The translations under genes were made by a program, and so were the position numbers. Positions 3,283 through 56,023 of a DNA stretch of 64,000 bases are shown here, piece by piece. The stretch lies in the sequence record NC_105587.1, one strand, 5' to 3'. The notes beneath the pieces were generated by a model. It saw only the letters and a program-made list of their open reading frames with translations. It was not told the DNA's origin and did no database searches. Source of the stretch: Escherichia phage EC100. Every line of letters starts with the position of its first letter. The stretch's first letter is position 1.

Positions 3283-4424
3283 AGGAAATCTCCAAATTCA
3301 TTGCCCAGATCTTTCAGAGTATCAGTAGAGGTCTCAGTTACCTGACCTACACGGTAAGCTGCACCAATCTGGATTTCTTGTGGAGCAGGCTGTAGAGAAG
3401 TAGTATCCAACCAGTTCATGATCCACGGAATAGGGTTTTTGGTGATTACTGGTAAGTGACTAGGCCATTCTACACCAATGTGCATAAATGCGTTACGTCC
3501 CACAAAGTACAAGTATTCTTCTAGAAGTTCTGCATTCAAACCAATCAGACTACGACCTTTGAAGATGAAATGACCCCATTCAATTTCAGTTTTCAGAGTT
3601 TTCAGGAGCTGTGCTGGTGCTTTAGCCACTGCTTCATCTACCAGATCTTTGTCAAACTGCTGGAACATAATCTGGATGATTGTTTTAGACATCTGAGTAT
3701 GTAGGGCTTCATCTTTAGCAATCAACTGCAGATTTTTAGCAATACCTTGCAGAATATCGTTCTCTGCTAACGCAAAGGTACATGCAAAGGATGCGTAGAA
3801 CTGCATTGCTTCTAGACCGTAGATTGCAAAATAAGCGTCTAATAACTTAGCCTGAGTTTCACGTTTAACTTCAGGAAACTCTGTTTCTGGGTAAGTATTA
3901 TCACCACGATGATCGCGTACTGCGATGAAATACTGACCTAACTGGTACAATTCATCGAACAGTTCAACAGAATCAGCGATACGTGCGAATGCTTCTTGGT
4001 TTTTAGTTACAGAATCAATAAATTCTGCCGGATCAGTCAGCACATTACGGATAATATTGCTATACGCACGACTATGCAGGTCTTCAAAATAGCTCCACTG
4101 CTTGAGCATACCTTCCAATTCTGGACGGCTTACAAGCGGCATAATAGCTGCTTCAGGAGCACGACTGATAAAGGAATCTGTTTGAGTCTGCCATGCTAAG
4201 TTCAGGAGTGTGATTTCCTGGATTTCACGTGGGAGATTGGGCCATTGTTTCTTATCTGCTTCCAGACTGATTTCAGTTTCAGTCCAAAATTGAGAGCGTT
4301 GCAGAAGTGCCAGACGTTCTAGTTCTGGATGTGCTACACGTACATAATCTGCGATACCTAGAGAATCGCCCAGGAAAAGATCAGCGTTAGTATGATCCCA
4401 ATTCAGGTTTAGTAAAGTAGTCAT
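3279..4424 (-). CDS. nrdB: ribonucleotide reductase class Ia beta subunit
   Basis: 381 aa; ferritin-like di-iron RNR small-subunit pattern; GAGGA SD. Confidence 0.9.
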   Translation of the reverse strand: MTTLLNLNWDHTNADLFLGDSLGIADYVRVAHPELERLALLQRSQFWTETEISLEADKKQWPNLPREIQEITLLNLAWQTQTDSFISRAPEAAIMPLVSRPELEGMLKQWSYFEDLHSRAYSNIIRNVLTDPAEFIDSVTKNQEAFARIADSVELFDELYQLGQYFIAVRDHRGDNTYPETEFPEVKRETQAKLLDAYFAIYGLEAMQFYASFACTFALAENDILQGIAKNLQLIAKDEALHTQMSKTIIQIMFQQFDKDLVDEAVAKAPAQLLKTLKTEIEWGHFIFKGRSLIGLNAELLEEYLYFVGRNAFMHIGVEWPSHLPVITKNPIPWIMNWLDTTSLQPAPQEIQIGAAYRVGQVTETSTDTLKDLGNEFGDFL

Positions 4425-4455
4425 TGATTTTCCTCTTTCTCACTATTTCAGGAAT

Positions 4456-4484
4456 ATTATAGCAAATCAGGTAGCGATTAGCAA
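4456..4484 (-). promoter_or_regulatory. sigma70-type promoter, TTGCTA-17-TATAAT, for nrdB-frd-thyA
   Basis: -35 rc of 4479-4484, -10 rc of 4456-4461. Confidence 0.55.
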
Positions 4485-4494
4485 GTAAAATTTC

Positions 4495-4530
4495 AAAGAA
4501 AAAGGAGACCCGAAGATCTCCTTGTTTTTT
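4495..4530 (-). terminator. rho-independent terminator after nrdA
   Basis: 8-bp stem with UUCG tetraloop (AGGAGAUC-uucg-GGUCUCCU) followed by UUUUU. Confidence 0.65.
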
Positions 4531-4531
4531 A

Positions 4532-6862
4532 TTATAACTGGCAACCACCAGAAGCACAACCCGCTGCTTCTTCACCAGCTCCTCCACCATTCGCAGTGTT
4601 AAAGTTAGCATAATACCAAGTTTTTATACCGTACTTAACAGCAGTCATGAAATCACGAACTACTACTGGGCCAGGGATGATTTCATTCTCGAATTTAGAG
4701 TAATCATAATACATCTGGAAACTTGATGACTGATTCAAGAATTTTTGGTAAACGGCGTTCCACTTGATCCACTCAGTGCGATCAATATCATAGGCCAGTT
4801 TATAGCTCATTAATGTTTCCCAATCAGTCGCACCTGGGGCAATTGCAATTACTTTATTCACTGCACTACCCTTGATAGATACAATCTTACGAGGTGGCTC
4901 AATTGAGTTGGTAACACCTAACAGAACAGAGGAACTTTCTCCCGGCATCTGAGCAGTCAGAACAGAGTTACGCATACCGTATTTCAGAATATCTGCACGG
5001 AGAGATTCCCAATCCATTTCTAGACCTACGGATACCAGCTCATCAACAGTTTTCTTATACGTGTCGATTACCAGAATTCCTTTGGATGGTTTAGTACGAT
5101 TAAACCATTCACATGCACCTTGTTCTTTAGCCAGACGTACAGAGGCTTTATGTAGGAAGTAAGACAGTTTTTCAGCCTCACGGTGAATCCAGTTACGTGC
5201 TTCAACGCCTTCATAAGCCAGACCTTCTGCTGCCATTGCACCTGCTGCGTTCATAAGGCCAATACCAACGTTACGACGTTTCTTAGCTGTATATTCCATA
5301 GTTGGGAACGGATAGTCCTGAATTTCAATAATTGTATCAACGAATTTCAGGAGGATGTAGCAAGTTTTTTCCCACTCAGCCAGAGATTCCATGCGTCCTA
5401 GTACAACACCACCTAAGTTACACAGAGATACTTCCCCAATATCCTCCGGCTTCATTTGATCAAGTTGTTCTTTTGTTTTATACAGTTCCGTGATATGATG
5501 GAGCGGGCGTGTAGGCTGAGTAATTTCAACACAAAGGTTTGTCATACGGATTGGATCAAGGAAGTTACCGTGACGATTAGATTCCCCAATGTGGTGCGCA
5601 TACATGCGTCCTGTTTCCATTCGGATACGTAGCCAGGTATCTAGGATTTCTTTTGCAGAGACTTTAGGAGCTGCTGGAACTGTTTTTCCTTCGTGGTCGA
5701 TCTTTGTAAGAGATGCCACACGTTTCTCCGCTGCCACATAGATTTCTTCAAATTTAGCCTCGTCATCACTATAAAACGCTTCATGAACTTCTGGAGCATA
5801 GAAGTATGACATTAGCGTAATATCTTCATTTTTCAGATAACGTTTTAACAAAAGATTGTTGAAACTCAGAGAATAATCCATCTTATCGATTTTATTCTCA
5901 TCTGTAGCACGTTGTTGCTTAACCTGCATCAACTGGATGATTTCAGGGTCAAAGTAAGGATAGGATACAGTAGCAGAACCACCACGAGTTTGCTGAGTAT
6001 TAGCCTTTACTGATCGGTCAATGTGTCGATAATATGGCAGTTTTCCGGAATGCGGGAATGCCCCATTTCGCACCGGATCAGCAATTGATCGGCTTTCAAG
6101 ATGATACCCGATTCCCGCTCTGGCTGCGACCATTTTAAAAACGATGTGCTCGGCTGTGTCGATTGAATCCAATGTGTCAGTGGAATCCACGAGGCAGCAA
6201 CTAGCAAATCCACGGTCACTAGAGCGCAAGCCAACCAATGGCGGCGTAGGAACGTTGATTTTGTGGAGCGACATTGCATTGTAGAGGTCGATTGCATCTA
6301 GAATTGTCCAGTTAGGTTGAGATAACATCGCCATTGCCATGCCCATATAGGCAAATTGCGGGGTTTCGTAAATTTCGCCAGTTGCGATATTACGACGGGA
6401 ATACTTATCAAAGAATTGTTTCAGTCCTCCGCTAGTGAAAAGACGGTCACGATCATGATCAATAACCTGATTCAAAGCCTCAAACTGCTCATCGGTAATC
6501 CATGCACTCATGTCTTCCCATGCACCTACACTAACCATATGATCGTGGAAAAAGCGTAGAGAAGGTGGTTCGAAGGAATCATAAAGGCGTTTACGCATCT
6601 GCGCAAGACGTAATTCCTTTGCAGGCACGTCGTATGCTGGATTATCTTTGATAAGACTTTCAGCAGCTTTAATTAACGCATCCATCAGAGTATCGGAATC
6701 TACAACCCCTTTAGGCAGAGTTTTTTGAGCAGCCATAGTAATGGCTGACCAACTTACATCAACTGTTTTGCAACCATACTCTGCCCAACCATTGAGTTTT
6801 TCAGGAGCAAAGTCTTCTACAGTACCGTCACGTTTAATTACTTTTTCAATGCGATGGCTCAT
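4532..6862 (-). CDS. nrdA: ribonucleotide reductase class Ia alpha subunit
   Basis: ATP-cone N-terminus (IEKVIKRDGTVEDF), large catalytic body, C-terminal CxxC tail; start set at ATG 6862 (AAAGGAAAA SD) rather than the ORF-track ATG 6967. Confidence 0.9.
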   Translation of the reverse strand: MSHRIEKVIKRDGTVEDFAPEKLNGWAEYGCKTVDVSWSAITMAAQKTLPKGVVDSDTLMDALIKAAESLIKDNPAYDVPAKELRLAQMRKRLYDSFEPPSLRFFHDHMVSVGAWEDMSAWITDEQFEALNQVIDHDRDRLFTSGGLKQFFDKYSRRNIATGEIYETPQFAYMGMAMAMLSQPNWTILDAIDLYNAMSLHKINVPTPPLVGLRSSDRGFASCCLVDSTDTLDSIDTAEHIVFKMVAARAGIGYHLESRSIADPVRNGAFPHSGKLPYYRHIDRSVKANTQQTRGGSATVSYPYFDPEIIQLMQVKQQRATDENKIDKMDYSLSFNNLLLKRYLKNEDITLMSYFYAPEVHEAFYSDDEAKFEEIYVAAEKRVASLTKIDHEGKTVPAAPKVSAKEILDTWLRIRMETGRMYAHHIGESNRHGNFLDPIRMTNLCVEITQPTRPLHHITELYKTKEQLDQMKPEDIGEVSLCNLGGVVLGRMESLAEWEKTCYILLKFVDTIIEIQDYPFPTMEYTAKKRRNVGIGLMNAAGAMAAEGLAYEGVEARNWIHREAEKLSYFLHKASVRLAKEQGACEWFNRTKPSKGILVIDTYKKTVDELVSVGLEMDWESLRADILKYGMRNSVLTAQMPGESSSVLLGVTNSIEPPRKIVSIKGSAVNKVIAIAPGATDWETLMSYKLAYDIDRTEWIKWNAVYQKFLNQSSSFQMYYDYSKFENEIIPGPVVVRDFMTAVKYGIKTWYYANFNTANGGGAGEEAAGCASGGCQL

Positions 6863-13210: not shown

Positions 13211-13233
13211 TTTTTATTAGTTGACCTCTGATT

Positions 13234-13262
13234 ACCGAGTCATTTTGGCTCGGTTTTCTCTA
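13234..13262 (+). terminator. putative rho-independent terminator
   Basis: ACCGAG / CTCGGT stem followed by TTTCTC. Confidence 0.4.
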
Positions 13263-13301
13263 TGCTCAAAGACACTGATAGCACCATCCGGAAAATTTTA
13301 C

Positions 13302-13330
13302 TTGCAGGATGCCCAAAATCTTGATATAAT
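13302..13330 (+). promoter_or_regulatory. extended -10 promoter (TTGCAG-17-TATAAT with TGn) with no ORF behind it
   Basis: TGATATAAT extended -10 at 13322-13330; the next ORF starts about 500 nt downstream. Confidence 0.5.
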
Positions 13331-13827
13331 ATTTATATTGAATTGAGAGACATTAGTAAAAATTGATTTTGCTAATTTTTCTTGTTTACAATCCGCGATA
13401 CGGAACAGTTAGGCTGCCCCATTAAGGGTTGTTTTAACTATTACTAGTGTTTATATTGCATTAGTTAATCTTCAATTAAGTGATCTGTGTACCCTGAATT
13501 CGGAAAGGTAAATCCAAACCGTGCATATTTAGCTCGTTATATAGGCAGAGTTTTATATGGGGGTGCGAACGAAAAGAGCAGCGAATGGCGGCACGTACAG
13601 TAGTCACCTACCAATAGGATAGTGAGGACAAATAGAATCGGCTTAGCGGCCAATGACCTAGGTTCTATTCTGTATATGAGCGAAGAGAGCACAGCACTGA
13701 GATATGATAACTTATTCATATTGTTTGATGATAATTGATGTTTACGTAAATAGTAGTAATAGTTGTTCTATTCTTTCTGAATAGTCCTAAAGAAAAGATT
13801 TCGATTAACCAACACAGGAGTATTGTT

Positions 13828-15666
13828 GTGTTTTCTATCCTTCAAGGTCACGCCGGATTTTCTCGTGATTTAGCAACAGGTATTTGGCGAGAAATCAAAG
13901 CGGAAGATTATACCTTTGCCAAGCGATTCTCGAAAGAGCATCCAGAAGGTAAACCAGCTTCTATGCCCTTCAAATTTGATGTAATAGAAGAGCACGACCC
14001 ACAAAGCCTTGCCGAAATGTTACCCCTTATGAGACGTTTAACGTCTGACCCTCATATCGTTGCGGTACGAGGTCGATGTCTTGCACCTAAAAATAATGTG
14101 CGACGTAAGAAAGGTAACTTTAATGTATCTAATCCTAGTAATATTATTGCTATGGACGTGGATGGTATCCTAGATACCGGTGGGTACGACAAATTTAATC
14201 TTGTTGGTATGGCCCGCCACATTATTAAGATGTTGAATAGTATTAGTGAGGATATGTTTCCTCTTGATGCAGGCTTTATAGCTCATGCATCATCTTCGGC
14301 TGGGCTAAAACCAGGTATCCGAATGCACTTAATGCTAGAATCTAACGTCAAGGTAACTCAGGGTCAGCTAAAGTTCTTATTTACATCTATCAACGATAGT
14401 AGTAAGCAAAAATTTGGTTTTGATATTGCCGACCTAGCTTATTATTCATCTGTCCAGCTCCACTATTTTGCCGACCCCTTATTTAGCGATGGTATTGTTG
14501 ATCCGTTTAAAGCGGAGAGTAAGCCACGTCTGGTGTATGTTAAAGGTTCGAAAGTAAATTTGCCCAATAATCTAGTTGACTATGAAACAACTAGAGGGGA
14601 GTTTAAGGAAGAGTTTTATTCTTTACTTGATCAAATTAAAGGCAAAAAGATTGCTTCTGATAAAGTAGAAGAAACCATCAGCGAGTTAGAAGAGGCTGAT
14701 GATGGAGTGTATTTGCGTATTATCCCCAAACTATACCATAGAGCATTAGAGGATGGTGTTGATTTTGCATGGCTAGAACGTGAGATTAAACCAGCTTTAT
14801 CTGAATATATTGCAACTAAAGATAACAGTCGTAATATTCAAGATTACTTTAATAACGGTCGTAAGCAGGCTCTCAAAGCGTTTGTTAATAATTCTAAACG
14901 TGAGATTCCATTAAATCTGAAAGGTGTTCCACTTAAGAAATTAGAAGTGGATTCTCCACCAGAAGTTCCATACCTGAAGATTAATATTGTGCCCCCAAAA
15001 GGCCATATAACATTTGTTAAGGCAAGTCTTGGTACGGGTAAAACTACGGCAGTAACTAAATGGCTGGACGCAGGTGTTCTTCCGGGCAACTTTTTAGCAG
15101 TTACAAATACTAGAGCACTGGTATCTTCAAATGCCAAGAAATTTAGTGCAGGACAATACGATAAGTCTGTAGATATGCTCAACTTTAAGCGTGGAGCTAT
15201 TGATCGTATGTCCACAACTATTCACTCTTTGCATAAGTTCAAAAGTTTTATTGGGCAAATAGACACCATTTTTATTGATGAATGTGACGCTGTAATGAAT
15301 GACCTATTATTCGCCCCTGTTGTTAAACAACGTCGTGAGTGTATTCAAGTTCTACGTGACATCCTCATGACAGCTAAGACTGTAATCTTATCCGATGGTG
15401 ATATTAGTGCTGAGACGATTGAAGCATATGGTTCTCTAATTGATTTTGATAAACCGGTTGCATTTTATAATCATCACCGTAAAATGCTGTCAAAAGCTCA
15501 TGCTTATGAGTTCCCTGATGAGTCCAGTATTTGGGTTGCACTTCAGACTTCTCTAGAGATGGGTGAGAAATCTATTCTAGTATCTGATTGTGGCCCGGAT
15601 GAGCTAAATGAGAAAGGTATGGCACTGCGTCGTAATACGGGTGCGTTAGTTAAGGAAATCCATTGA
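13828..15666 (+). CDS. helicase-like protein, N-terminal portion, ends at in-frame TGA
   Basis: 612 aa, GTG start with AGGAG SD; Walker A GTGKTT and Walker B IFIDECD. Confidence 0.6.
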   Translation: MFSILQGHAGFSRDLATGIWREIKAEDYTFAKRFSKEHPEGKPASMPFKFDVIEEHDPQSLAEMLPLMRRLTSDPHIVAVRGRCLAPKNNVRRKKGNFNVSNPSNIIAMDVDGILDTGGYDKFNLVGMARHIIKMLNSISEDMFPLDAGFIAHASSSAGLKPGIRMHLMLESNVKVTQGQLKFLFTSINDSSKQKFGFDIADLAYYSSVQLHYFADPLFSDGIVDPFKAESKPRLVYVKGSKVNLPNNLVDYETTRGEFKEEFYSLLDQIKGKKIASDKVEETISELEEADDGVYLRIIPKLYHRALEDGVDFAWLEREIKPALSEYIATKDNSRNIQDYFNNGRKQALKAFVNNSKREIPLNLKGVPLKKLEVDSPPEVPYLKINIVPPKGHITFVKASLGTGKTTAVTKWLDAGVLPGNFLAVTNTRALVSSNAKKFSAGQYDKSVDMLNFKRGAIDRMSTTIHSLHKFKSFIGQIDTIFIDECDAVMNDLLFAPVVKQRRECIQVLRDILMTAKTVILSDGDISAETIEAYGSLIDFDKPVAFYNHHRKMLSKAHAYEFPDESSIWVALQTSLEMGEKSILVSDCGPDELNEKGMALRRNTGALVKEIH

Positions 15667-15681
15667 AACTCTACCTCAGAT

Positions 15682-16617
15682 GTGGATATTCGACGTATTC
15701 TGGATTACACAACTAATGAACTAATTGATCAACAAATTGATTGCTTATTATGTAGTCCATCCGTAACGAGTGGTGTTGACTTTAACTATTTTGATAACGT
15801 ATTTGTGATTACTAGAACTAGTAATCAAGCGCCAAACATGCGTTTCCAAGCAATCAGGCGCGACCGTGGTGCTCAGAATATCTATTATTTTATTGATAAA
15901 TCCACTAGTGGATTCTCCGCAGGTTCTGAACAATATAATATTGATGAGGGTTGGCTGGAGTTAGCACAGCAATTATATGCACGTCGCAGGGAGCTGGAAT
16001 CTAGGAACTATACTAGTACTTTACGTTATTACTTGCTTGATCAGGGTGCAACTATTGATATTTTCAGTGAAAGCTGGGGAACTATTGAAGGTGCTGGTAA
16101 AGAGTACACAGAAGAGCGAATCAAAGCTATTCTGCACTCAACTCCTGATTATTGTGCTCCACGTCATGCGGATGCGTATGAAGCTAAGCTACTTCTTGTT
16201 CGCTATTATCATCTCGAGTCTATTAAAGATGTAACAGTTGAGCATGTTGAACAATATATAAAAGATAAACCGAATGATCGAGCTGCATTCTTCCATAAGA
16301 TGCACGAGATGTTCTGGGAAGATATTAAGAAGTGTTCAAATGTGACCATTAAACCATTCATAGAGGCTCTGAAAGGTAAGAAGAAAGATTTCTTCCTTAA
16401 AACCGGTCAGAGTGCTAACCCAAAATATGCTAGAATGTATCTTGGCATGATGGGTATTGGTAAGGATATGAACACGGAGAATATCGTAGACTGGTACAGA
16501 ACCTACTGTAAAATCGAGTGTATGCCAATTCCTTATAAATTCATGACTGACGAGGAAAAACATATGCACGATGAAGCAATGTCAGAGCTAGGTGCTAGAA
16601 ATGACAGTGAAGAATAA
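15682..16617 (+). CDS. helicase-like protein, C-terminal portion (same frame as 13828-15666)
   Basis: 311 aa in the same reading frame 15 nt after the TGA; helicase-like SPSVTSGVDF motif; no SD in front of its GTG. Confidence 0.5.
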   Translation: MDIRRILDYTTNELIDQQIDCLLCSPSVTSGVDFNYFDNVFVITRTSNQAPNMRFQAIRRDRGAQNIYYFIDKSTSGFSAGSEQYNIDEGWLELAQQLYARRRELESRNYTSTLRYYLLDQGATIDIFSESWGTIEGAGKEYTEERIKAILHSTPDYCAPRHADAYEAKLLLVRYYHLESIKDVTVEHVEQYIKDKPNDRAAFFHKMHEMFWEDIKKCSNVTIKPFIEALKGKKKDFFLKTGQSANPKYARMYLGMMGIGKDMNTENIVDWYRTYCKIECMPIPYKFMTDEEKHMHDEAMSELGARNDSEE

Positions 16618-16902: not shown

Positions 16903-17607
16903 ATGGCTGGTTCTCGCAGAAAGAAACATATCCATGAAATCCCGGATGAAGTCTTTAAAAAAGTTATAGAGCATCTGGAGAATGGTGGTACTAAGAAAGC
17001 AGCATGTGAAATGCTCGGCGTATCATCCAATCCAACTATGGAAAGGATGATTGAAGAATGGCAAGACCGCCAGATTCAAGTTGCCGAAATGAAGAAAAAG
17101 AAACGTGGCACACTTATTGAAGGCATAGAGTTAGCCAACGTTATTGAGCAGTATTTATCTGGTGATTCTTTTGAAGAAATTGCCGATCGTAATTATCGCT
17201 CTGTAGCAATGGTTAAATCTGTTCTGGAACGATATGGTGCTCTACTTCGTTTTAACGATATTGTAGATCCATTGAATCCTCCAATTATTCCTGATGATGC
17301 TGTAGCAGAAGAATTTGCAGTTGGTGAGCTTGTTTGGGTTCCTGGATACCAGTGTATCGGTGAAATCAAAAAAGCAATGGATAATCCTGTTGGTTGTTAC
17401 CGTGTTTGGCTTCTATCAGAAGGCAAACAACAGAACGTTCATTATATGAATTACGAGCTGGCTTCTGTTAAACATCTGGAAAAGTTAGGAGTAGACGTAA
17501 AATCTTTAGGATATAAGTGGACTCGTGAAGAAATTATTACGTTGATTAACGAAGCTGTTAAGGCCGCCTTGAAACTTGATAAAGAAAAAGGAAAACGCCG
17601 TGAGTAA
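16903..17607 (+). CDS. hypothetical protein, possible HTH DNA-binding protein
   Basis: 234 aa behind a cassette promoter; N-terminal GGTKKAACEMLGVS helix-turn-helix-like stretch. Confidence 0.5.
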   Translation: MAGSRRKKHIHEIPDEVFKKVIEHLENGGTKKAACEMLGVSSNPTMERMIEEWQDRQIQVAEMKKKKRGTLIEGIELANVIEQYLSGDSFEEIADRNYRSVAMVKSVLERYGALLRFNDIVDPLNPPIIPDDAVAEEFAVGELVWVPGYQCIGEIKKAMDNPVGCYRVWLLSEGKQQNVHYMNYELASVKHLEKLGVDVKSLGYKWTREEIITLINEAVKAALKLDKEKGKRRE

Positions 17608-19158: not shown

Positions 19159-20130
19159 ATGACCAATGTAAAAGAATTTATTAAACGCTGTCAAGAAGCA
19201 TATTATCAAGGCATGTCTTTAATCTCTGATGAAGAATATGATCGCCTGGTAAAACGCTTCCCGTTAGAGGAAGAGATCGGGCCTAAGGGTGATATTCCAC
19301 ACCTATATCGTATGTATTCTTTACAGAAAGTTTATTATAACCGTGGGGATAAACCACCATTTAATCCTTTAGGTCAGGTAGAAACTGATAAGTTAGATGG
19401 TTGTGCAATTTCTCTGCTATATATTAACGGTGAATTTGTTCAAGCATTAACCCGTGGTAATGGTATTCTGGGAAATGATGTAACAAGCAACGTAAGATTG
19501 CTGAACATTCCTAAAAAGATTTCCCAAAAAGTACCTACTCAAATCACTGGTGAAGTTCTAATTACAAAAGAAGTAGAAAATAAACGTAACTTTGCCTCTG
19601 GTGCTATTAACCTCAAAGATAGTGATGCTTTCGTACAACGCATTGGAGAAGGCGGTTTAATCTTTGTTGCTTACGGTATCCAATGTTCTGCTGAATCTGT
19701 AGGTATTACAGAAGCATATTTAAAAGATATGCTTTGGCTAGAGAAGGAGAACTTCTTAACAGTTGTTAATGTGCGTTCCTTTTTTAAATGGATTCCTACG
19801 GACGGTAAAGTTGTTCGTATTAATGACAATAACAAATTCTTCCGTGAAGGCTGGACTAATAAATTCCCTCGTGGAGCATTCGCCATTAAAGAGGATGAAG
19901 AAGGCGAAATTACAACTCTTACTAAAGTTGAATGGCAGGTAGGGGCTTCTGGTAAAGTAACTCCAGTTGGTTATTTCGAACCGGTAATTATTGATGATGC
20001 TACAATTGTTAAAGCGACTCTTAATAACGTTGATTATATTAACTCTCTTGATCTAGAGATCGGTTGCCAGATTCGAGTGATTCGTGCTGGTGGTGTAATC
20101 CCGTGCATAGTAGAGCGAGTATACGATTAA
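19159..20130 (+). CDS. lig: NAD-dependent DNA ligase, subunit A (adenylation and OB domains)
   Basis: 323 aa; KxDG adenylation motif (KLDGCA) and LigA-type OB-fold segment (WQVGASGKVTPV...RAGGVIP). Confidence 0.8.
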   Translation: MTNVKEFIKRCQEAYYQGMSLISDEEYDRLVKRFPLEEEIGPKGDIPHLYRMYSLQKVYYNRGDKPPFNPLGQVETDKLDGCAISLLYINGEFVQALTRGNGILGNDVTSNVRLLNIPKKISQKVPTQITGEVLITKEVENKRNFASGAINLKDSDAFVQRIGEGGLIFVAYGIQCSAESVGITEAYLKDMLWLEKENFLTVVNVRSFFKWIPTDGKVVRINDNNKFFREGWTNKFPRGAFAIKEDEEGEITTLTKVEWQVGASGKVTPVGYFEPVIIDDATIVKATLNNVDYINSLDLEIGCQIRVIRAGGVIPCIVERVYD

Positions 20131-20332: not shown

Positions 20333-21112
20333 ATGAAAATCGAAATTCCAACACAATGTCCCTCTTGTGGTTCTAAGCTAGATCTTGTCAACGGACAATT
20401 ATTCTGTCGTAATAAGTCCAACTGTCCAGCGCAATCAAGTAAGTTAATTGAGAACTTCTGTTCAAAAATGAAGTTAAAGGGCTTTGGCCCAAAAACTATT
20501 GAGAAGCTGGAGCTGACGAAGATTTCAGAACTATTTTACCTAACCGAAGAAGATTTGGTTAGAGCCGTGGGTAGCAAGGTTGCCGCTAAGTTAATTAGCG
20601 AATTAAATACTAAAGTTCGCGGAGACATTGACTTTGGTTCAGTTCTCGGTTCTTTAGGAATCCCTCTAATTGGAGAGGTTGCAGCAAAGAAATTGTCCCA
20701 AAATTGCACCAGTTTTCAAGATGTGAAGGCTGACGGCAAGGCTGGAGAAAACTATAAAGCCTGGCTAAATTCCCCACAAGGCAAGGATGTTATCGAATTA
20801 CCGTGGAAATTCACAACTGGTATTAAAGGTGCTAAAGCTGAGGTCATCATTACTGATGGTCTAGTAGCCCAGCCAAATGGAATCGCGGTGTGTATTACCG
20901 GGTCTTTGCAAGATTTTGCAAATCGAACGGATGCAACAAACTATTTAGAAGGTCTAGGATATACGGTTAAGAAATCCGTTACCAAAGACGTCAAATACCT
21001 AATCTGTGAGGATGAATCTAAGCGTTCTTCCTCATCTTATAAGAAAGCCGAAACGAATGGGATAGAAATCCTGTCGATTAAAGAACTATTGGAGAAAAAT
21101 AATAATGTCTAA
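20333..21112 (+). CDS. lig: NAD-dependent DNA ligase, subunit B (Zn finger, HhH, BRCT-like)
   Basis: C4 zinc finger CPSCGSKLD...CRNKSNCPAQ at the N-terminus, then HhH-like GFGPKT; ATG at 20333 (ORF track starts at TTG 20330). Confidence 0.75.
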   Translation: MKIEIPTQCPSCGSKLDLVNGQLFCRNKSNCPAQSSKLIENFCSKMKLKGFGPKTIEKLELTKISELFYLTEEDLVRAVGSKVAAKLISELNTKVRGDIDFGSVLGSLGIPLIGEVAAKKLSQNCTSFQDVKADGKAGENYKAWLNSPQGKDVIELPWKFTTGIKGAKAEVIITDGLVAQPNGIAVCITGSLQDFANRTDATNYLEGLGYTVKKSVTKDVKYLICEDESKRSSSSYKKAETNGIEILSIKELLEKNNNV

Positions 21113-21888: not shown

Positions 21889-21922
21889 TAAGGGGAGGGG
21901 GCTATGCTCCTTCCCCTTTTTG
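21889..21922 (+). terminator. rho-independent terminator
   Basis: AAGGGGAGGG / CCTTCCCCTT stem followed by TTTGCATTT. Confidence 0.55.
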
Positions 21923-21954
21923 CATTTAGAAGGCACGAAAGCGTGCAAAGGAGA

Positions 21955-23427
21955 ATGACCTTGTTTAACGTGCAAGCTGTAGTGTTGAAGATGCTTCTAG
22001 CTTCCGAACAGAAGCAAATAGCATTGGAAACATTCTCAAAACTGCATAAAGATCATTTTAATGACGCTTTCTCCTCAATTTACCAAGCCGTCCAGAATTA
22101 TTATAAAAAATATAACACAATGCCGTCCATTGACGCACTGATGCTTGAGTCTAATAGGAACGCCCGCCTTTCTCAAGCTCTAGTCGTCTTAGCTAACACT
22201 CAAATTCCAGAAGTGAGCATGGAACAGGCACTTGAAGTCCTAGAGGCCGAATATACACAGGATTTATTCCTGAAGCTTCTAGAAACAGACGTGCTTCAAG
22301 ATTTAACAATGCTGGATCAGGGAGAAATTCTCAACCGAGTTGCCTCCCTTCACTTAAAATTAGAAGAGAAAGTAACGAATACTGGAAAAGTATTCAACGC
22401 AGATAACATGCGTATTTTCCAGAGAGAAGAAGATACCAAACTGAACTTAATCGCTCTTGGTATTTGTAATGAGTTCGACGCTCAAATTGGTTTAGCTCGC
22501 ACAGAAACGTTACTGCTTGGTGGTTGGCGTGGTACTGGTAAATCCATTATCTGTTCAAACATACAGGTTCAGCAATATTTGAATGGAGATATTGCTCCAT
22601 ACTTCTCAATTGAGATGAAAGAACATGAAGTATTTAGACGTAATCTAGCCATGTTAGCTGGTGTATCAGCATTAGCAATGCGTAATAATACTCTAGAAGG
22701 TGCAGCTCTGTTGAGGTTGGCCAGAACTAGAGCTAGAATGTTTAATGGTGGTGAAGAGCTTTTTGATAACTTCGTTAAACAGTACACAATGGCTAAGATG
22801 AGTGATTTCTACGATATGGAGAGTAAGCTAATAGAGGGATATGAACTACATACTCCTATGATTATTGTTTATGATCCTGAGCTGTCCATTACAACAGTTG
22901 ACGTAGAATTAAATAAATTAGTTGCTAGATATGGTGATAAAGTTACAGTAGCTTTACTGGACTATATTAACCAAACCCGACTTCCAGACTCTAAAACCAT
23001 TGATATGTATGACTGGAAAGAACAGATGGTTGTTAGCTCGTCTTTCAAATCTATCTGCCAGAAACATAACGTGGCTGGAGTAGCTCCTTACCAGATCGAT
23101 CAAGATGGTAGAACACGTATGTCAAAGGGGATTCTTGATTCCGCAGACATGGCTGCTAATCTTAATGCTGCAAAAGCTGATAATGGTCAAGGTGCTATTA
23201 TGTTTGACTTCGTTAAGACTCGTTCTTCTGATAGCGTGAAGTTTATGCCTAAAATGAACTGGGAAACTCTGCGAATGGATAACACTACCAATCTAGCAAT
23301 GGAAGATATATCTCAAATGGAAGCTGAGTTCGTTATCCCTATTGAGAAGGATAAGTCGGCTCAACCTAAACGTGCTAAGAAAGACAAAGCTGAAAATTCA
23401 ACAGGTGAACAGGCCAGCGATATATGA
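21955..23427 (+). CDS. DnaB-like replicative helicase
   Basis: ATG 21955 with AAGGAG SD (ORF-track start 21904 lies inside the terminator); Walker A GGWRGTGKS; gene immediately precedes primase. Confidence 0.6.
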   Translation: MTLFNVQAVVLKMLLASEQKQIALETFSKLHKDHFNDAFSSIYQAVQNYYKKYNTMPSIDALMLESNRNARLSQALVVLANTQIPEVSMEQALEVLEAEYTQDLFLKLLETDVLQDLTMLDQGEILNRVASLHLKLEEKVTNTGKVFNADNMRIFQREEDTKLNLIALGICNEFDAQIGLARTETLLLGGWRGTGKSIICSNIQVQQYLNGDIAPYFSIEMKEHEVFRRNLAMLAGVSALAMRNNTLEGAALLRLARTRARMFNGGEELFDNFVKQYTMAKMSDFYDMESKLIEGYELHTPMIIVYDPELSITTVDVELNKLVARYGDKVTVALLDYINQTRLPDSKTIDMYDWKEQMVVSSSFKSICQKHNVAGVAPYQIDQDGRTRMSKGILDSADMAANLNAAKADNGQGAIMFDFVKTRSSDSVKFMPKMNWETLRMDNTTNLAMEDISQMEAEFVIPIEKDKSAQPKRAKKDKAENSTGEQASDI

Positions 23428-24314
23428 GTAGAATAACAGAACTACTTGATCTGAAAGGCATTGAATATAAAGACACAGGTGGGGACATCCTCATCTGTTG
23501 TCTCAATCCAGATCATGACGATAAACACCCAAGTTTGCGTATTGATCCTGAAACAGGTATTATGCACTGCTTGAGTTGTGGCTTCGGTAAAGGTATACCG
23601 AGCATTTACCATTATTTTAATGAGACTCAGTACCGACAGTCTCCAAGACTATCACAGGTACGTAAAAAGATTTCAGAGATTAGGAATGGATCTACGAATC
23701 TTGCAATTCCTGAATCTGCTTACCTTTTCGAAGGTGATTTCCGAGGTATAAGTTCTAAGACCTTGAAGAAATATTTTGCTTTCCAACACCAAGCAGACTG
23801 GGAAGGCAGAATTGTATTCCCAATCACAGATGCTGTTGGACGCAATATCCTATTTTTGGGTCGTTCTATAAACAGTTCTGCCCCTCCTAAATACTTAGTA
23901 AAACCAAAACAAGTTTCACCACCAATTTTTCCTGTACGATATAATACTCCAGTTCTTATTCTAGTTGAAGGTATCTTTGATCTGCTAAATCTAGAGGATA
24001 ATGGTATAGACTATGCTTCTTGTTGCTTTGGTACACATCAGTTTACTTCAGACAACATTGCGGATAAGTTTAGTCCTTATATTATTGCTGGTGTAAAAGT
24101 TGTTGTTATCTTACTAGATAATGATGCTTCGGGTAATAAAGCTGCACAAGCACTGGCCAAGCTAATTCGTACAAAAACGCGTTTAACACCTGTAGTTGCT
24201 AACTTTCTTCTACCTGAAGGTAAAGACCCAGGTGACCTAAATAAAGAAGAAATTGATATGTTAGCAAAACGTATTGAAATTTTAGTTGCTGAATCGCTTA
24301 AAGATTTGGTATAA
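23424..24314 (+). CDS. DNA primase (zinc-binding plus TOPRIM)
   Basis: 296 aa; CHC2-type zinc motif CCLNPDHDDKHPS...HCLSCG and TOPRIM motifs LVEG, DNDASG. Confidence 0.8.
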   Translation: MSRITELLDLKGIEYKDTGGDILICCLNPDHDDKHPSLRIDPETGIMHCLSCGFGKGIPSIYHYFNETQYRQSPRLSQVRKKISEIRNGSTNLAIPESAYLFEGDFRGISSKTLKKYFAFQHQADWEGRIVFPITDAVGRNILFLGRSINSSAPPKYLVKPKQVSPPIFPVRYNTPVLILVEGIFDLLNLEDNGIDYASCCFGTHQFTSDNIADKFSPYIIAGVKVVVILLDNDASGNKAAQALAKLIRTKTRLTPVVANFLLPEGKDPGDLNKEEIDMLAKRIEILVAESLKDLV

Positions 24315-26944: not shown

Positions 26945-27434
26945 TTTCAAATTGCCCGTCTATGCGTTACGGGCGTTTGTATCAATTGAGCAAGAAGGTG
27001 ATTATTCCGTAATTACAACAAGATATAATAAATATGTGCTAGATAACAGGAAGTTGCCTGGCACGTTTTCTCAACGTAGGCTTATTCTATTTGAGAAACG
27101 GAAAGAATTACCGTACAAGCTCTATCCTATTAGAGGTAGAATATCAATGTTGTCCCAATTAGTTGGGTCAAAGCGTAGCCAATTTATAGATTCTGATGGA
27201 AATCTTATTAATTGGAAGAAAACTACGTTCTATGATGTTGTTACCTCTAAAGTTTTGCATTCAGCTAGAATTTATAACGGAAAATACCAATGCTATGTAG
27301 CTAAAGTTCCATATCCATTTGTATTATCCTATGTTCCAGCGTATATAAGCTATATTCTGGTAAATAATAGCCCTGTTATTTATCAAGTCCATCAAGAGGA
27401 GCCTGAAATTCCTAGACTTAGAATAAAATTATGA
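26937..27434 (+). CDS. hypothetical protein
   Basis: 165-aa ORF, GTG start overlapping the polymerase stop. Confidence 0.4.
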   Translation: MLDFKLPVYALRAFVSIEQEGDYSVITTRYNKYVLDNRKLPGTFSQRRLILFEKRKELPYKLYPIRGRISMLSQLVGSKRSQFIDSDGNLINWKKTTFYDVVTSKVLHSARIYNGKYQCYVAKVPYPFVLSYVPAYISYILVNNSPVIYQVHQEEPEIPRLRIKL

Positions 27435-28783
27435 AGGTTGTTATATCTAATAAAGCCTATTTCAAGCCCGATGATGAACTTTGGGATTATTGTAGTAAGC
27501 AAACCACTTATCACATTGAGACAATGACTAGTAAATACCCTATTATGTATAAGAATAGTGGTGTTGTTGCTAAAGAGATTAAGTGGATTCCTATCACGCG
27601 TCTAGATTTACTAGATGCTAAAGGAGTAAAATACGAATTAGTCGATAAACGCACATTAGCCCCAGTAGATATACCAAAACCTAAGTTTAAGCTGCGTGAA
27701 GAAGACCAGCTCCCAATATATGAAGAGTGCGATGATACCTGTATTATTAATGGTAAGCCTGGATTTGGCAAAACTATCCTAGCCCTGGCACTTGCGTATA
27801 AATTTGGCCAGAAAACTTTGGTAATTTGTACCAACACATCTATTCGTGAAATGTGGGCGGCAGAAGTTCGTAAATGGTTTGGGTTCGAACCGGGCATTAT
27901 AGGTTCTGGGAAATACAATATTGATCCACCAATTGTAGTCAGTAATATTCAAACAGTAAATAAACATGCGAATAATCTTTCTAAAGTATTCGGTACTGTT
28001 ATAGTTGACGAAGTTCACCATTGTGTGGCTACAACTTTCACTAACTTCCTAGAAATATCATGTGCTCGCTATAAGATTGGACTATCTGGAACATTAAAAC
28101 GTAAAGATGGTCTACAAGTTATGTTCAAAGACTTCTTTGGATATAAGATCTTCAGCCCGCCTGTTAATAATACTGTTGCACCTACAATCCATAGGTACTC
28201 TGTACCTGTTGAGTTATCAGGAAATCAGAATGTGCCATGGGCATTACGTGCTAATGATGTGTACAACCATCCTGAATATCGAGAGACTATTATAAACTTA
28301 GCACACTTATACGTGAATATGGGGCATAAAGTACTCATTGTAAGTGACAGAACAGAGTTAATCCAAACAGTACTAGAAGCTCTCGCACAGCGTGGTGTTA
28401 CAACATATGAAATTATAGGGGCAACTCACTTAGATGACCGATTAAAAATTCAGGAAGATATAGCAAAAGGTGGACCTTGTGTACTTGCAGCAGCTCAAAG
28501 TATCTTCTCTGAAGGTATTTCCCTTAATGAGTTGTCTTGTTTAATAATGGGAAGTCTCATTAATAATGAATCTCTCATCGAACAGCTTGCAGGACGTGTT
28601 CAACGTATTGTCGATGGTAAACTAGACCCTATTGTTGTAGATCTAATTATGAAAGGTGGCACTGGACTAAGACAGGCTTCTGGACGTATGGCAGTATATC
28701 GTAACAACGGGTGGAAAACTATTACCATGACCCCTGAGAAAGCAGTTCAATTAGCTAAAATTGCATTTGGCAACAGCTCATAA
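27431..28783 (+). CDS. SF2 DEAH-box helicase (T5 D10-like)
   Basis: 450 aa; Walker A GKPGFGKT, motif II DEVHH, C-terminal helicase motifs. Confidence 0.8.
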   Translation: MKVVISNKAYFKPDDELWDYCSKQTTYHIETMTSKYPIMYKNSGVVAKEIKWIPITRLDLLDAKGVKYELVDKRTLAPVDIPKPKFKLREEDQLPIYEECDDTCIINGKPGFGKTILALALAYKFGQKTLVICTNTSIREMWAAEVRKWFGFEPGIIGSGKYNIDPPIVVSNIQTVNKHANNLSKVFGTVIVDEVHHCVATTFTNFLEISCARYKIGLSGTLKRKDGLQVMFKDFFGYKIFSPPVNNTVAPTIHRYSVPVELSGNQNVPWALRANDVYNHPEYRETIINLAHLYVNMGHKVLIVSDRTELIQTVLEALAQRGVTTYEIIGATHLDDRLKIQEDIAKGGPCVLAAAQSIFSEGISLNELSCLIMGSLINNESLIEQLAGRVQRIVDGKLDPIVVDLIMKGGTGLRQASGRMAVYRNNGWKTITMTPEKAVQLAKIAFGNSS

Positions 28784-39605: not shown

Positions 39606-41678
39606 TTACCTTATATGGATATACCCACTATTTAGGTCTATCTTCATCTTGTAGTATGCCTCAGGATTCCCGGATAACGCAGCATTTCTATCATAAATGA
39701 TGTTAACACCGATCTGAGATAAGAAAGCATTTCCTGCTACAATTTTATCTGCCGTCACCGTCCCATTAACAATCATGTTTCCGTGGAGAACCATTGCAGG
39801 GCTAACCCAACCAGACCCATTCCATTGCCTTGTAAATGCTGATTGTGGAGCATTACTATTAAATTCGGTTAATACATCATATCTAACAGGAGGACTACCA
39901 AAGTTATTCTGGAAGAAGGCATTAGCCTGCCCATCATCCCAGCCCCCAAGACCAGGAATACCTAAGGAGTACATTCCAGGACCACGTTGTCCATCATGTC
40001 CTATAGTACCCTCAGTACCACTCCACTGAACTACATCAGACCAGCTAGTACCTTCAAGAAGTTTGTTAGTAACGGGATCAAGCGTACCTGTAGTGGCATA
40101 GATATTCTGTGTCATATCTGTACGGTTAGGTGGAGTTTTTGACCAACCAGGAGGCGGATAATCTTGTTCTAGTGGTTTAGCAGGTAGAGATGTTGCTAAC
40201 TTATAAACAAATACTGTTTGCTTACCTTGCATACCAGTACCCAGATCTACATCACCATTAGGAGTTCCAATAACTACTCCACTAGAAATACGTAGCACAT
40301 CACCATCATAACGAATCCACTGTGTGGCATTACCAATGTCTAATTTAGCTTTGGCAGAGGTATTATCCATACCCATCCAAATACCAGAGTTATTATCCCC
40401 CCAAGATTTACCTTGAGTGTAAATTGCTGGATTATCCTTACCAGATAAGTTAGTCATGATAAAGTTCGCAGCATTAATATCTCTAGTAATTACTTTACCA
40501 TCAACGTTAACAACACGGTTTATAGGGTCAAAAGAAATAGGTGCTTTTCCTTCTTCATCTAGCAGACCAATGTTAATAGCACCAGTAGCTGCGTCGATTA
40601 AGAATGTCTGTCTCCAGATTTCTCCATCTTTCATGCTGCCCTTAATAAAGGCATAATTAACATCAATACCCGTCTCATTGACAAAGCTGTTGTCTAGAGG
40701 AGTATCTTCATTAAGTATAAACGTTACAGGAGCTGATTCTGTTATATCTTGCTTATTTGGTCCCCAGGCAATTGATGATACCTTAAAAGTATGCTCAACT
40801 TTCCATGGGAATGATATAATCGTTGCAGCTCTAGCAGCCCCAACGTTTATCTTTTGAGCTTTAGCCCAGCCAGTCTTAGCGTATTCTTCAGAGTTTATAT
40901 AAGTAACCAGAAATTCACGGACATTAGCACCCGCACCACGTTCCCAGTCCCACTCTATTCTGACATCATATCGTTCCTTACCATCTGCAATTCGTGCAGC
41001 TTTAAAGGCAATGTTAGTAGGTGCAGTAGGTGGTACAAAATTATAAGCTACAGTGAAAACGCTAGGATATTCATAATAACCAGATGAGTCAACTGTAACA
41101 CCATCTGGCATCGTAACTTGACCAGATATTCTGATCTTATAGTCGCCAACAGGAACACCACCAAATTTGATAGTAGGTCCCAGCGCACCTATATAATACT
41201 TAACCCATTCACTATCTTCTGATGCAGTACTTTTTAATTCAATAGTGCAGTAACTAGCTTCACCAGTAGTATCTACAACAACTATTGGAGCACCAACACC
41301 TACGTCGACGGGTTCTGATTCAGATCTTGCTGCAACAATTATTGGCTTTTCCTTTGTTCTAAAGTTAGTTTCATTAGAGAGGTTGATACCAATTTTTGCA
41401 TTTAAAAGCTCTGAGTCAATAATTGAGTCATAGAAAGCCCCCTGAATCTCATAGGAGGTAGAGGGGGTTAGATTATTAATCATTACGAAGAAAGTATCTA
41501 TACCGGTGTAATCACGTCTATCTATACTTTCTCCTATTTTTAACCAAAAAGATCTACCAATAACATCATAATCAGTATAAATGGAGTGCTGGACATAAGC
41601 CAAAGTATATCCAGTCATTATACTATTTAAGACCATTTTGGCTGGTGCATTATTTGAAATCATTAAATGGATGCCCAC
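39606..41678 (-). CDS. baseplate / tail tip protein (T5 pb4-like)
   Basis: 690 aa, downstream of the hub gene; assignment by size and position. Confidence 0.5.
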   Translation of the reverse strand: MGIHLMISNNAPAKMVLNSIMTGYTLAYVQHSIYTDYDVIGRSFWLKIGESIDRRDYTGIDTFFVMINNLTPSTSYEIQGAFYDSIIDSELLNAKIGINLSNETNFRTKEKPIIVAARSESEPVDVGVGAPIVVVDTTGEASYCTIELKSTASEDSEWVKYYIGALGPTIKFGGVPVGDYKIRISGQVTMPDGVTVDSSGYYEYPSVFTVAYNFVPPTAPTNIAFKAARIADGKERYDVRIEWDWERGAGANVREFLVTYINSEEYAKTGWAKAQKINVGAARAATIISFPWKVEHTFKVSSIAWGPNKQDITESAPVTFILNEDTPLDNSFVNETGIDVNYAFIKGSMKDGEIWRQTFLIDAATGAINIGLLDEEGKAPISFDPINRVVNVDGKVITRDINAANFIMTNLSGKDNPAIYTQGKSWGDNNSGIWMGMDNTSAKAKLDIGNATQWIRYDGDVLRISSGVVIGTPNGDVDLGTGMQGKQTVFVYKLATSLPAKPLEQDYPPPGWSKTPPNRTDMTQNIYATTGTLDPVTNKLLEGTSWSDVVQWSGTEGTIGHDGQRGPGMYSLGIPGLGGWDDGQANAFFQNNFGSPPVRYDVLTEFNSNAPQSAFTRQWNGSGWVSPAMVLHGNMIVNGTVTADKIVAGNAFLSQIGVNIIYDRNAALSGNPEAYYKMKIDLNSGYIHIR

Positions 41679-45232: not shown

Positions 45233-48200
45233 TTAAGAATTTCCTAATGTTTTCAGACTAGCACCGTTCTCATTCAGAGCTAATTCTACTGCGTCTCTTA
45301 GAGCACTACTATTACTAGAAGCAAACTCTCTAAAACTTGCAGCATCCATAGCACTAATATTCAAGATGATAGGTCTTCCTGAAGTTGAGTTAGATGAGGT
45401 TTTTAACTCATCATTAGGTGTAGCTTTCATAGGAACCATAGGGGTAACTACTTCTGTACCATGCTCACCCATTTGATAGCTAACCCCAGGGTACATATTA
45501 CCACCCTCAGCACGAGGAACGAAAGAGTTAGCACCGCCTATGCCTTTATCGCCACGAATATAAGATAATTCACCAGCATTAGCAGACATGGACACATCTA
45601 TATTCTTCTGACGTTCTCCTAAGGTTAAATAACTAGTTGTATCCGCCCCAGAATCTGCAATAGAAGACATGCCAGATGCAGAAGATGCTTGTGCTAACGC
45701 CAATGCACCCGCTAAACCTGCCGCAACCATTAAAGGAATAGAGAACGGGTATGGTACAGCTGTTGCCGCTTGCATTACAGCTACTGCAGTTTGGATGATA
45801 ATCTGCTTCTTAGCTGCGTCTTGTTGAATCTTCAGCTTTTCAGCTTCCAACTTCTTCAACTTAGCTTTAGATGCTTCTGATTTACCATCACGTTTCTGTT
45901 CTGCTGCAATAGCCTGATCAATTGCACTAACTTGTTGGCTAGTACTATATTGAATCATCGAGGCTACAGTCTGCATACCAGAAGCAATCATAGACGTAGT
46001 ATCTAGGGATCCCTGGGAGAACTGAATCATAGAGTTAGTTAAATTACCCATGCTTTGAGCTACAGCAGTTGCTTCGGAATTTAACTCAGATAGTTTAGAA
46101 ATTGCTTGGTCATACGAAGACATCCTATTCTGCATATCAGCAAAATCTTTATCTGCTCCAGATAGGCCAGTTGTAGGAGTATAAGTAGCTCCAACAGAAG
46201 AACCTACCTGTTGCTGCATCTGAGCATTACGTTGTGCTGTTAAAGCTGACATCTGAGCCCTTGTCTTAGCTATTTCAGCATTCCAACGCATTTGCTCATT
46301 AGCGTTACCTTTGGTAAGTTCTTTCATCTGAGTATAAAAATCTAACTGCATTTCCATTTTTTGCATTTCCCCTGCCAGAGGGAACATGGAAGTTAGAGTA
46401 TTTTCAAAGGCTTCTTGCCTTTTACTGGTCATTTCAGCTTGCTGGTTCTGACGGAATTTCCATATTTCACGTTCAATTTGGGCTTGAGAACGTCTAGACT
46501 GTTCAGCCTCTTTCTGTTTGTCCGCTTGTTTTGTATACCATTCGTACTTCTCTTTTTCAATGGTCAATTCAAGATTTAACTGTGCTAGACGATACTGAGT
46601 ATCTGTCATAGTACGGTTATTTAAGAGAGCTATCTCACGATCTACACCAAGAATTTTATCTGTGTAATCCTTGACCTTCTTCTGAGCTTCCATACCCTGA
46701 TTGGTAAGTTTAAGTTTCTCCAGCTGAATTTTTTCAATTTCTTTCTCAACAGCTTTATTTCCCTGGTTTGTTTGAAGAACACGGCGTAAAGCAGCTTCTT
46801 GCTCTTCTAACTGTTGGAGTTCTAAACGCCTACCGGCTTCCTGTGCTTTTTCTTTATCCTTAGTTTGGTTATATACATCAGCTATCTTCTGTTGAACTGC
46901 TAACTGATTTTTAGTTTCATTACCGGTTAGTTTAACATACTCAGATAAGGCCTGAGACGCAGTTTTCATTTCAGACAGAGTGTTATAGCCTAGGTTAAGA
47001 TTTTTAACGTACTCATCTGCACTTTTACCAGTACCTAGAGATAGAGATTCTATATTTTTTATAGCATCTGCTAAAGTAGCACTAGTTTTAGCAGCAGTAT
47101 CTGTATTCTGAGCAACGTTCTGTATGTCATTAGCTAAGTCACTAGCCGTTTTCTTAGTCTGATTGTACGCTTTCTGCTGCTCAGTTAGTCCTTTTAATAC
47201 AGTAGAGTTAAAATCGTATACAGCATCAGGATCAGTAGTATCTCTCTGTAGATTAATCTGTTTCTGAAACTCTGGATTAGCTTTTGCAGCAGCAGCACCC
47301 GCAGCTTGATAGGCTGACTTCCAAGCATTAAGGTTTTCAGTAGAATCTTCTACTTCCTTACCTAGTCTGGTTACTTGTAGACCCATAGCCGCAGTTTCTT
47401 CTACGAACTTTTTATTAGCTTCGGAAGCACCAGCAGCAGCAAGACCAACAGGAATACCTTCACCAACTTGACGTATGGCTAGTTTTGTATAGAAATCTGC
47501 TTGTTCCATTCGTTTGTCGAACTCAGATTTTAGCTTATTACGCTTATCAAGAGATTCCTTATACATATCTAGAGCTTTATTATAGCCTTCTTCAGAAGCA
47601 GCCAAACTTAAAGCAACAGCACCAACGTTGGTAGGATCTATCTGTCTATTAGTTTTTTCTTGCGCTCTAGCTGCCTCAGCAGATATCGAAGCCTGAGAAG
47701 TGTAGAATACAGTATTGATAGCATCAATTACTGGCCCTAAATACTTAGCAGCAGCCTGCTGAATCTTTCTCAGGGCGGCATCTGCATTAGCAGCAAATTG
47801 CTCCCATGGAGTTGCACGTAGTACTTCATCTAGGTAGCCAAACCTCTTAGTAGATTCAGCAATTACCGCGTTAGCGTATGCTTGTTGTTTCTGGAAAGTG
47901 GTAAGACTATTAACATTATATGTTATACCTGTGTTTGCAGCATTTAACTGTTTAACATAATCGGCGTATGCGTCATTAAGACGGATGGTGACACCAAGTT
48001 CATCCAGAAGTTCGATTTCTTGTTTAGATACGCCCTTAATTACACGGTTAAGTGCATCAGTCATATCAACACCAAGAACAGCAGCAGCACGACGAGCTAC
48101 TAAACCAAATTTATTAAGTTGTTCGGCATCAAATCCATAAGCAGATGCTGAAGATGCCTGTCTCATTGCTTCCTCAAAAGAAATAGCATATCCAGCAGCT

Positions 48201-48916: not shown

Positions 48917-48924
48917 ATTTTATT

Positions 48925-48964
48925 TTTCCCAATAAAAAAGGCTCTGGGCAAATCACCCAGAGCC
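48925..48964 (-). terminator. rho-independent terminator directly upstream of the tape measure start
   Basis: GGCTCTGGG / CCCAGAGCC 9-bp stem followed by UUUUUUAUU; the ATG follows 23 nt later. Confidence 0.6.
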
Positions 48965-48998
48965 AAGCCTCATCGTGGAACGCCCATTGGAGGAAACT

Positions 48999-49490
48999 TT
49001 ACCGTGCTCGAGATTTGGCATGCGGCTTAACGTTAGGTATTCTACCGTTTTGCGGCTTATGCTTCTCAGCACGTTTACGTGCAGCGTCTACAGCTTTAGC
49101 ATCAAATATATTGATAATGTGTAGAACAAATTCTTTTTCTATAGGGTCGGTAATCCCATAAATATCAAATAAAACACCTAAAGCAGCCTTGTCTTTACCT
49201 ATAAAGATAGGGAAGTCACCAGGTATGAAACAGTCAACTAGACTATTATAAATATTCATACTAATAGCTACAATAGGTGGAAAGTCTTCAAGTTCAACAG
49301 GCATAGCCTTAGGATCAGGTTCTATACCCATTGACTCACAAAGTATTAAATATTGTTGTTTAGTCATTTTAGATGCTGAGCTTTTAATACACTTATCTGC
49401 AAAATCAGCAACAGCATCTAGTAGTTCTTTACGCTTTTGAGCTACGAAAAGTGTCGAGGTGGAACACTGTCTGGTTGATCCAAGAATCAA
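48999..49490 (-). CDS. tail assembly chaperone, downstream frame (possible frameshift extension)
   Basis: 163-aa ORF in the +1 frame relative to 49429-49848, overlapping it by 62 nt; the only start is a non-ATG codon. Confidence 0.35.
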   Translation of the reverse strand: MILGSTRQCSTSTLFVAQKRKELLDAVADFADKCIKSSASKMTKQQYLILCESMGIEPDPKAMPVELEDFPPIVAISMNIYNSLVDCFIPGDFPIFIGKDKAALGVLFDIYGITDPIEKEFVLHIINIFDAKAVDAARKRAEKHKPQNGRIPNVKPHAKSRAR

Positions 49491-50728: not shown

Positions 50729-50732
50729 TTAT

Positions 50733-52139: not shown

Positions 52140-52165
52140 TTAATTATTTTCTCCTAATCTGTAAC

Positions 52166-52651: not shown

Positions 52652-52654
52652 TTA

Positions 52655-53934: not shown

Positions 53935-53939
53935 TTATT

Positions 53940-56020: not shown

Positions 56021-56023
56021 TTA

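Follow-up and report, generated by a model that had tools for sequence, protein, structure and literature searches.

How does a phage come to carry a helicase gene with a stop codon inside its motor? Escherichia phage EC100 (OK665835.1) is a Tequintavirus from pond water that was isolated on Escherichia coli ECOR4 (PMC9583813). In the 64-kb stretch of its genome analysed here (the window), a TGA at 15664-15666 divides two open reading frames (ORFs) that lie on the plus strand in the same frame, 13828-15666 (612 amino acids (aa), GTG start) and 15682-16617 (311 aa, GTG start). An earlier inspection of these letters (the original prediction) had read the arrangement as one helicase gene interrupted by a single TGA, and had offered programmed opal readthrough or recoding, a nonsense mutation, a genuinely split two-subunit helicase or a sequencing error as explanations. 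We find that the gene is the orthologue of D2 of phage T5, a characterised bipolar superfamily 2 (SF2) helicase related to herpesvirus UL9, and that the stop, as judged by sequence comparison, is private to isolate EC100 and stems from a single C-to-G transversion at 15665. On balance, we read it as a recent opal nonsense substitution that is tolerated most likely through readthrough of UGA-A.

The layout of the locus is as the original prediction described it. Conceptual translation of 13828-16617 gives 929 codons with a sole internal stop at codon 613, and within 15649-15696 the frame reads GTT AAG GAA ATC CAT TGA AAC TCT ACC TCA GAT GTG GAT ATT CGA. The two ORFs match consecutive parts of the PHROG 3712 profile (927 positions), the first at 1-613 (E=0) and the second at 620-927 (E 3e-184), so their pairing is not due to chance and the proposed joint helicase-like protein of about 929 aa holds. 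The depositors of EC100 annotated the region as two ORFs, and their proteins UIS74164.1 (612 aa, “hypothetical protein”) and UIS74165.1 (311 aa, “DNA primase C”) match the ORF products exactly. Among the 47 mapped coding sequences (CDS) of the window, D2 alone has an internal stop. TGA is the normal terminator of 11 of the 47, and the next base is A in 5 of those 11.

All relatives have a C at 15665, which makes codon 613 TCA (serine), and TCA stands there in T5, BF23, SP01, vB_Sen_I1 and EC122. The siblings EC104, EC105, EC122 and EC142 show one mismatch each over 3001 nt, and in a direct comparison of 6 kb with EC122 the sole difference is 15665, with G in the window and C in EC122. Over the first 45.7 kb of the window there are three base differences from EC122, of which the other two are synonymous third-position changes, leaving the TGA as the only non-synonymous one. 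The C is also kept in seven environmental contigs with matching flanks of 29 bases, six of them from IMG/VR and one from a metagenome, and a 61-nt query carrying the TGA found no full-length identical match among phage records (best 98.4%, one mismatch). Aligning the gene to T5-like homologues, which the original prediction had proposed as a check, thus gave contiguous genes with serine opposite the TGA. The same holds much further out: among 5.8 billion proteins searched, 74 clusters of homologues were found at identities down to 30%. They come from phages of Escherichia, Salmonella, Klebsiella, Pectobacterium, Erwinia and Vibrio and from metagenomes, and all are single proteins of 861-1050 aa that cover 92-100% of the query. 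No split homologue was found among these 74 clusters or in annotated phage records, and the 612/311 pair of EC100 is the only such pair in a 517-member cluster of full-length proteins. A candidate second case, vB_Sen_I1, which has three features under its match, was rejected because its gene is intact.

Apart from the TGA, the EC100 gene is an intact, contiguous 929-codon orthologue of T5 D2. DNA identity to phage T5 in the region is 97.6%, and T5.108 is there a single CDS of 2787 nt annotated “replication origin binding”. Wong, Sayers et al. (2013, Nucleic Acids Research) described T5 D2 as a 928-aa SF2 helicase with bipolar unwinding, placed motifs I, II, V and VI (arginine finger) at 396-406, 475-489, 632-653 and 668-682, and reported loss of activity for K405E (PMC3632103). 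The EC100 gene resembles T5 D2 (AAU05245 / T5.108) in length, motif positions and genomic neighbourhood, and differs in having TGA at codon 613 where T5 has TCA in an uninterrupted ORF. An uninterrupted ORF of about 930 aa is also the only feature of the D2 helicase family that it lacks. Pfam places Herpes_ori_bp at aa 389-533. An AlphaFold2 model of a 93%-identical representative (65 homologues, predicted local distance difference test (pLDDT) 88.4) has the two-RecA SF2 fold, and its best PDB matches are the herpes simplex virus 1 (HSV-1) origin-binding protein followed by SF2 helicases. Identity to that protein, UL9 (PDB 9hgj/9hgi), is only about 15%; the phage protein has an extra N-terminal region of about 380 aa with DxD/H motifs that UL9 lacks, and its origin binding is putative.

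The window translation contains all the motor residues, which the family keeps invariant (K405, D484/E485, S643-P644-S645 and R672/R678/R680), and the motifs named in the original prediction (GTGKTT, DECD and SPSVTSGVDF, the last at aa 643-652) are where it had placed them. Codons 1-612 (13828-15663) rest on the exact match to UIS74164.1, on PHROG 3712 positions 1-613, on Pfam and on the model. According to the model they would supply, after an N-terminal domain (invariant D110xD112 and H167) and a stretch of helices, RecA-like domain 1, which holds motifs I and II, and the opening beta-alpha-beta unit of RecA-like domain 2. Motif I (Walker A; ASLGTGKT, aa 399-406) lies at 15022-15045, with K405 and columns L401-T406 invariant, and motif II (Walker B; FIDECD, aa 482-487) at 15271-15288, with F482, D484, E485 and D487 invariant. 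Codons 614-929 and the natural stop (15667-16617) are supported by translation, by PHROG 3712 positions 620-927 (from codon 619 on) and by the model, in which they form the rest of RecA-like domain 2 with motifs V and VI and a C-terminal helical domain. The motif V region (LLCSPSVTSGVDF, aa 640-652) is at 15745-15783 with S643, P644, S645, G649 and D651 invariant, and motif VI with the arginine finger (aa 668-682) is at 15829-15873 with P669, N670, R672, Q674, A675, R678 and R680 invariant. All these features are on the plus strand.

In the model, the stop falls midway through RecA-like domain 2 and precedes motifs V and VI. The strands of this domain span 582-586 (motif IV), 608-611, 639-642 (motif V), 657-662 and 684-689, its helices 590-604, 619-635 and 669-676 (motif VI), and a loop occupies 612-618, so that the break comes directly after beta-strand 608-611, between motifs IV and V and not at a domain boundary. 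Lacking motifs V and VI, the 612-aa product cannot be an active SF2 motor. Across a 40-sequence alignment, column 613 holds S in 26 sequences, A in 8 and K in 6; among its neighbours H612 and S615 are invariant and D618 is near-invariant.

EC100 went through at least three rounds of plaque purification, and its genome was read on Illumina MiSeq at 433x and assembled de novo (PMC9583813). The substitution is probably real and not an artefact, because consensus substitution errors are rare at 433x Illumina, the bases around the site are not prone to error and two ORFs were annotated by the depositors. Of the explanations in the original prediction, an ordinary point nonsense mutation is therefore the one that stands best, given serine TCA in all relatives and the depth of the Illumina data, while sequencing error survives as the less likely of the two. 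The C-to-G change at 15665 turns Ser613 (TCA) into TGA, and most ribosomes would end there and release a 612-aa fragment without a working helicase motor. EC100 was nevertheless plaque-purified and grown to lysate, from which we infer that it is viable. UGA is the most read-through stop and in E. coli is misread by Trp-tRNA especially before A (PMC5289835; PMC10570021). The base after the EC100 stop is A, although it belongs to the pre-existing AAC codon. Host Trp-tRNA would thus occasionally misread UGA-A and yield a little full-length D2 (S613W), and a small supply could suffice for a helicase of the replication-initiation type; no phage-evolved recoding signal would be involved. Leaky readthrough is also favoured by the S/A/K column, which suggests that position 613 tolerates different side chains. 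The interruption has the character of a classical opal nonsense mutation. A close parallel is provided by leaky opal mutants and natural UGA readthrough in E. coli and coliphages: UGA before A, as in EC100 D2, is reportedly where Trp-tRNA misreads most, and a viable phage with UGA in an important gene fits the known leakiness of opal mutants.

Several points weigh against this reading. G15665 is the base of the assembled consensus (reads SRP394492), and a fault in assembly or consensus calling, or a mixed phage population, may lie behind it. Tryptophan at 613, between the invariant H612 and S615, may be poorly tolerated, to judge from the alignment. Readthrough of about 1% may fall short of what normal plaques require if D2 is strictly essential, as T5 amber mutants suggest. 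Natural E. coli isolates have a more active release factor 2 (RF2) than K-12, which would lower readthrough.

A less probable explanation is that the mutation is real and the D2 motor is lost, with D2 or its C-terminal half being dispensable in the laboratory; a DnaB-like protein (21904-23427 / 23424-24314), D10 (27431-28783) or the retained 612-aa fragment would then cover the need. The viability of EC100 and the further helicases in the window (by sibling annotation) agree with this, as does a CRISPRi-ART knock-down screen that scored T5.108 “Not Fit”, meaning no significant fitness effect. However, the T5 screen is insensitive, given that portal, tail tube and primase were likewise “Not Fit”. 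HIDEN-SEQ, another functional-genomics resource, includes no T5-like phage. D2 amber mutants make no net DNA (PMC3632103, citing Hendrickson & McCorquodale 1972), which argues against dispensability, but the link of these mutants to this ORF is ambiguous: NC_005859 and Bf23 give the D2 name to the neighbouring 705-bp gene, AY692264 gives it to the T5.108 gene (whose protein was studied in PMC3632103), and with the name on different ORFs across T5 records the amber evidence cannot be assigned to this gene with certainty. Conservation also argues against dispensability. The protein is full-length in all Demerecviridae sampled, down to 30% identity, and its catalytic motifs are invariant, which points to strong purifying selection, and neither phage records nor the 74 clusters showed another T5-like genome in which the gene is disrupted. 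It is doubtful that EC100 is a viable natural phage whose D2 is truncated in RecA-like domain 2 and whose SF2 motor is unneeded for lytic growth, at least on ECOR4, or, less likely still, works as two polypeptides. If either were true, the amber-based assumption that D2 is essential for T5 replication would be overturned.

One could also speculate, by analogy with T5 D10 and Retron-Eco11, that loss or down-tuning of D2 was selected, for example to evade a helicase-sensing host defence. As a defence escape the stop finds no support, because the retron-Eco11 paper implicates D10 and not D2, and an escaper survey lists the T5 polymerase and not D2.

Somewhat less probable again is that the TGA is a sequencing, assembly or consensus artefact, or a variant in a mixed lysate, and that the actual phage has TCA. 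The change is a single base, is unique among all public relatives, inactivates a gene thought necessary for replication and is the sole non-synonymous difference from EC122 in 45.7 kb, all of which speaks for an artefact. Against it stands the 433x Illumina coverage of plaque-purified phage, a depth at which a consensus very rarely contains substitution errors. Nor is the surrounding sequence, ATCCATTCAAACTC, a homopolymer. That the depositors annotated two ORFs from this same sequence also counts against an artefact.

Far less probable is a functional split helicase, in which ribosomes stop at the TGA and reinitiate at GTG 15682, and the 612-aa and 311-aa pieces reassemble. A start-capable in-frame codon does lie 15 nt past the stop, termination-reinitiation across short distances is known in bacteria, and motifs V and VI are kept in the C-terminal piece. 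The GTG at 15682-15684 (plus strand) is nevertheless a plain Val619 codon of D2 and not an evolved start. As the original prediction had noted, it has no Shine-Dalgarno sequence: its anti-Shine-Dalgarno duplex has a free energy of +0.4 kcal/mol, compared with -2.9 to -10.7 kcal/mol for eight real nearby starts. Column 619 is variable (E11/V8/A6/P4, also K, in the 40-sequence alignment), and SP01 has GTA. A restart would lose residues 613-618, including the invariant S615 and the near-invariant D618, and the break falls within the RecA2 beta-sheet and not at a domain boundary. A scan for internal promoters and terminators gave none above chance. With no split homologue, no ribosome-binding site, an unconserved GTG and a break inside the RecA fold, a conserved or evolved two-subunit helicase is rejected, and this alternative of the original prediction is not borne out.

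A two-ORF enzyme does occur nearby. The NAD-dependent DNA ligase is present as two CDS, 19159-20130 and 20333-21112, about 200 nt apart, annotated as ligA/ligB subunits in T5 (PMC3632103), and this split appears to be genuine and shared by T5-like phages. As with D2, two adjacent same-strand ORFs cover one enzyme family; however, the ligase split is conserved in T5-like phages, whereas the D2 break is conserved nowhere, has no second ribosome-binding site and cuts a domain.

Programmed recoding, whether as evolved opal readthrough, selenocysteine insertion or a phage opal-suppressor tRNA, has next to no probability: T5-like phages do carry about 20 tRNA genes and one sibling gene is labelled “tRNA-OTHER”, but the stop is lacking in every relative, the four near-identical siblings included, which is decisive against an evolved mechanism of any kind. 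No selenocysteine insertion sequence (SECIS) or other relevant Rfam family was found at E<=10 in 15400-15950, and the predicted fold of the 91-nt segment that begins at the stop does not surpass that of shuffled sequences (z = -1.1). The original prediction had suggested checking for an opal-suppressor tRNA. There are no tRNA genes in the window, and the tRNA cluster of sibling EC122, taken as a proxy because that of EC100 lies outside the window, holds no UCA anticodon among 20 ARAGORN tRNAs and two weaker Rfam matches. EC100 itself has 19 tRNAs, as do its siblings (PMC9583813). TGA is moreover an ordinary stop in the window (11/47). Taken together, programmed readthrough, selenocysteine insertion, code reassignment and phage-encoded suppression find no support, and the first alternative of the original prediction falls away. 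In the Q-beta A1 protein, for comparison, the leaky stop is conserved and each of the two products has a function, while the EC100 stop is isolate-private and shows no sign of selection for two products. The EC122 gene annotated “tRNA-OTHER” (40158-40229, minus strand) is a degenerate tRNA-like gene, with an Rfam tRNA score of 35.5 bits, that ARAGORN reports only when its threshold is relaxed. Its anticodon loop is TAACTGG (anticodon ACT), with mismatches in the acceptor and D stems, and it is not an opal suppressor.

For an isolate-private nonsense change in D2, the novelty is minimal: it is one more instance of a known event type in a known gene. Its main use is as a caution, given that a striking “interrupted helicase” comes down to a nonsense change of one base, in one isolate, in a gene that is already well characterised, and EC100 D2 should be taken neither for recoding nor for a new split-helicase architecture. 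If the G is confirmed in the reads, EC100 would be a ready-made natural opal mutant of a T5-type D2. It could then serve to ask what amount of D2 a T5-like phage requires, whether the amber phenotype belongs to this ORF and to what extent UGA-A is read through in a natural E. coli host.

The surroundings of the gene offer a few further observations. D2 has a Shine-Dalgarno sequence, AGGAG, at 13816-13820 (plus strand), within the 20 nt upstream of the start (accaacacaggagtattgtt), with an anti-Shine-Dalgarno duplex of -6.9 kcal/mol. Upstream of the gene is a 617-nt non-coding gap (13211-13827), in which a strong terminator-like hairpin occupies 13234-13254 and a promoter-like site 13363-13392; it has no iteron-like repeats above chance, and nothing there suggests an origin for an “origin-binding” protein. 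At the other end of the gene, T5 (NC_005859) has the HNH homing endonuclease hegI (T5.109) at 4402-4920, which overlaps the 3' end of D2 at about 16601 in window terms. hegI is absent from the window, BF23 and EC122, and apparently present in Salmonella phage MET_P1_100_107, where the match is in two pieces over 3.5 kb. As a cause of the split, considered by analogy with genes that homing endonucleases have split, it was rejected, because it sits beyond the end of the gene instead of at codon 613, and the window lacks it.

Downstream, 16903-17607 encodes a 234-aa protein, the homologue of T5.111, which is labelled “D2 helicase” in NC_005859, Bf23 and PHROG 3611. Pfam gives it only weak helix-turn-helix matches and no helicase motifs, and the D2/helicase label was probably mis-transferred from the neighbouring 929-aa gene. 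Finally, the window is near-identical to EC122 up to about 45.69 kb (three single-nucleotide differences) and then diverges sharply, from about 45690 to 64000, in tail, receptor-binding and head genes, where its closest relative becomes EC105 (99.1%), a pattern that points to recombinational mosaicism among the siblings.

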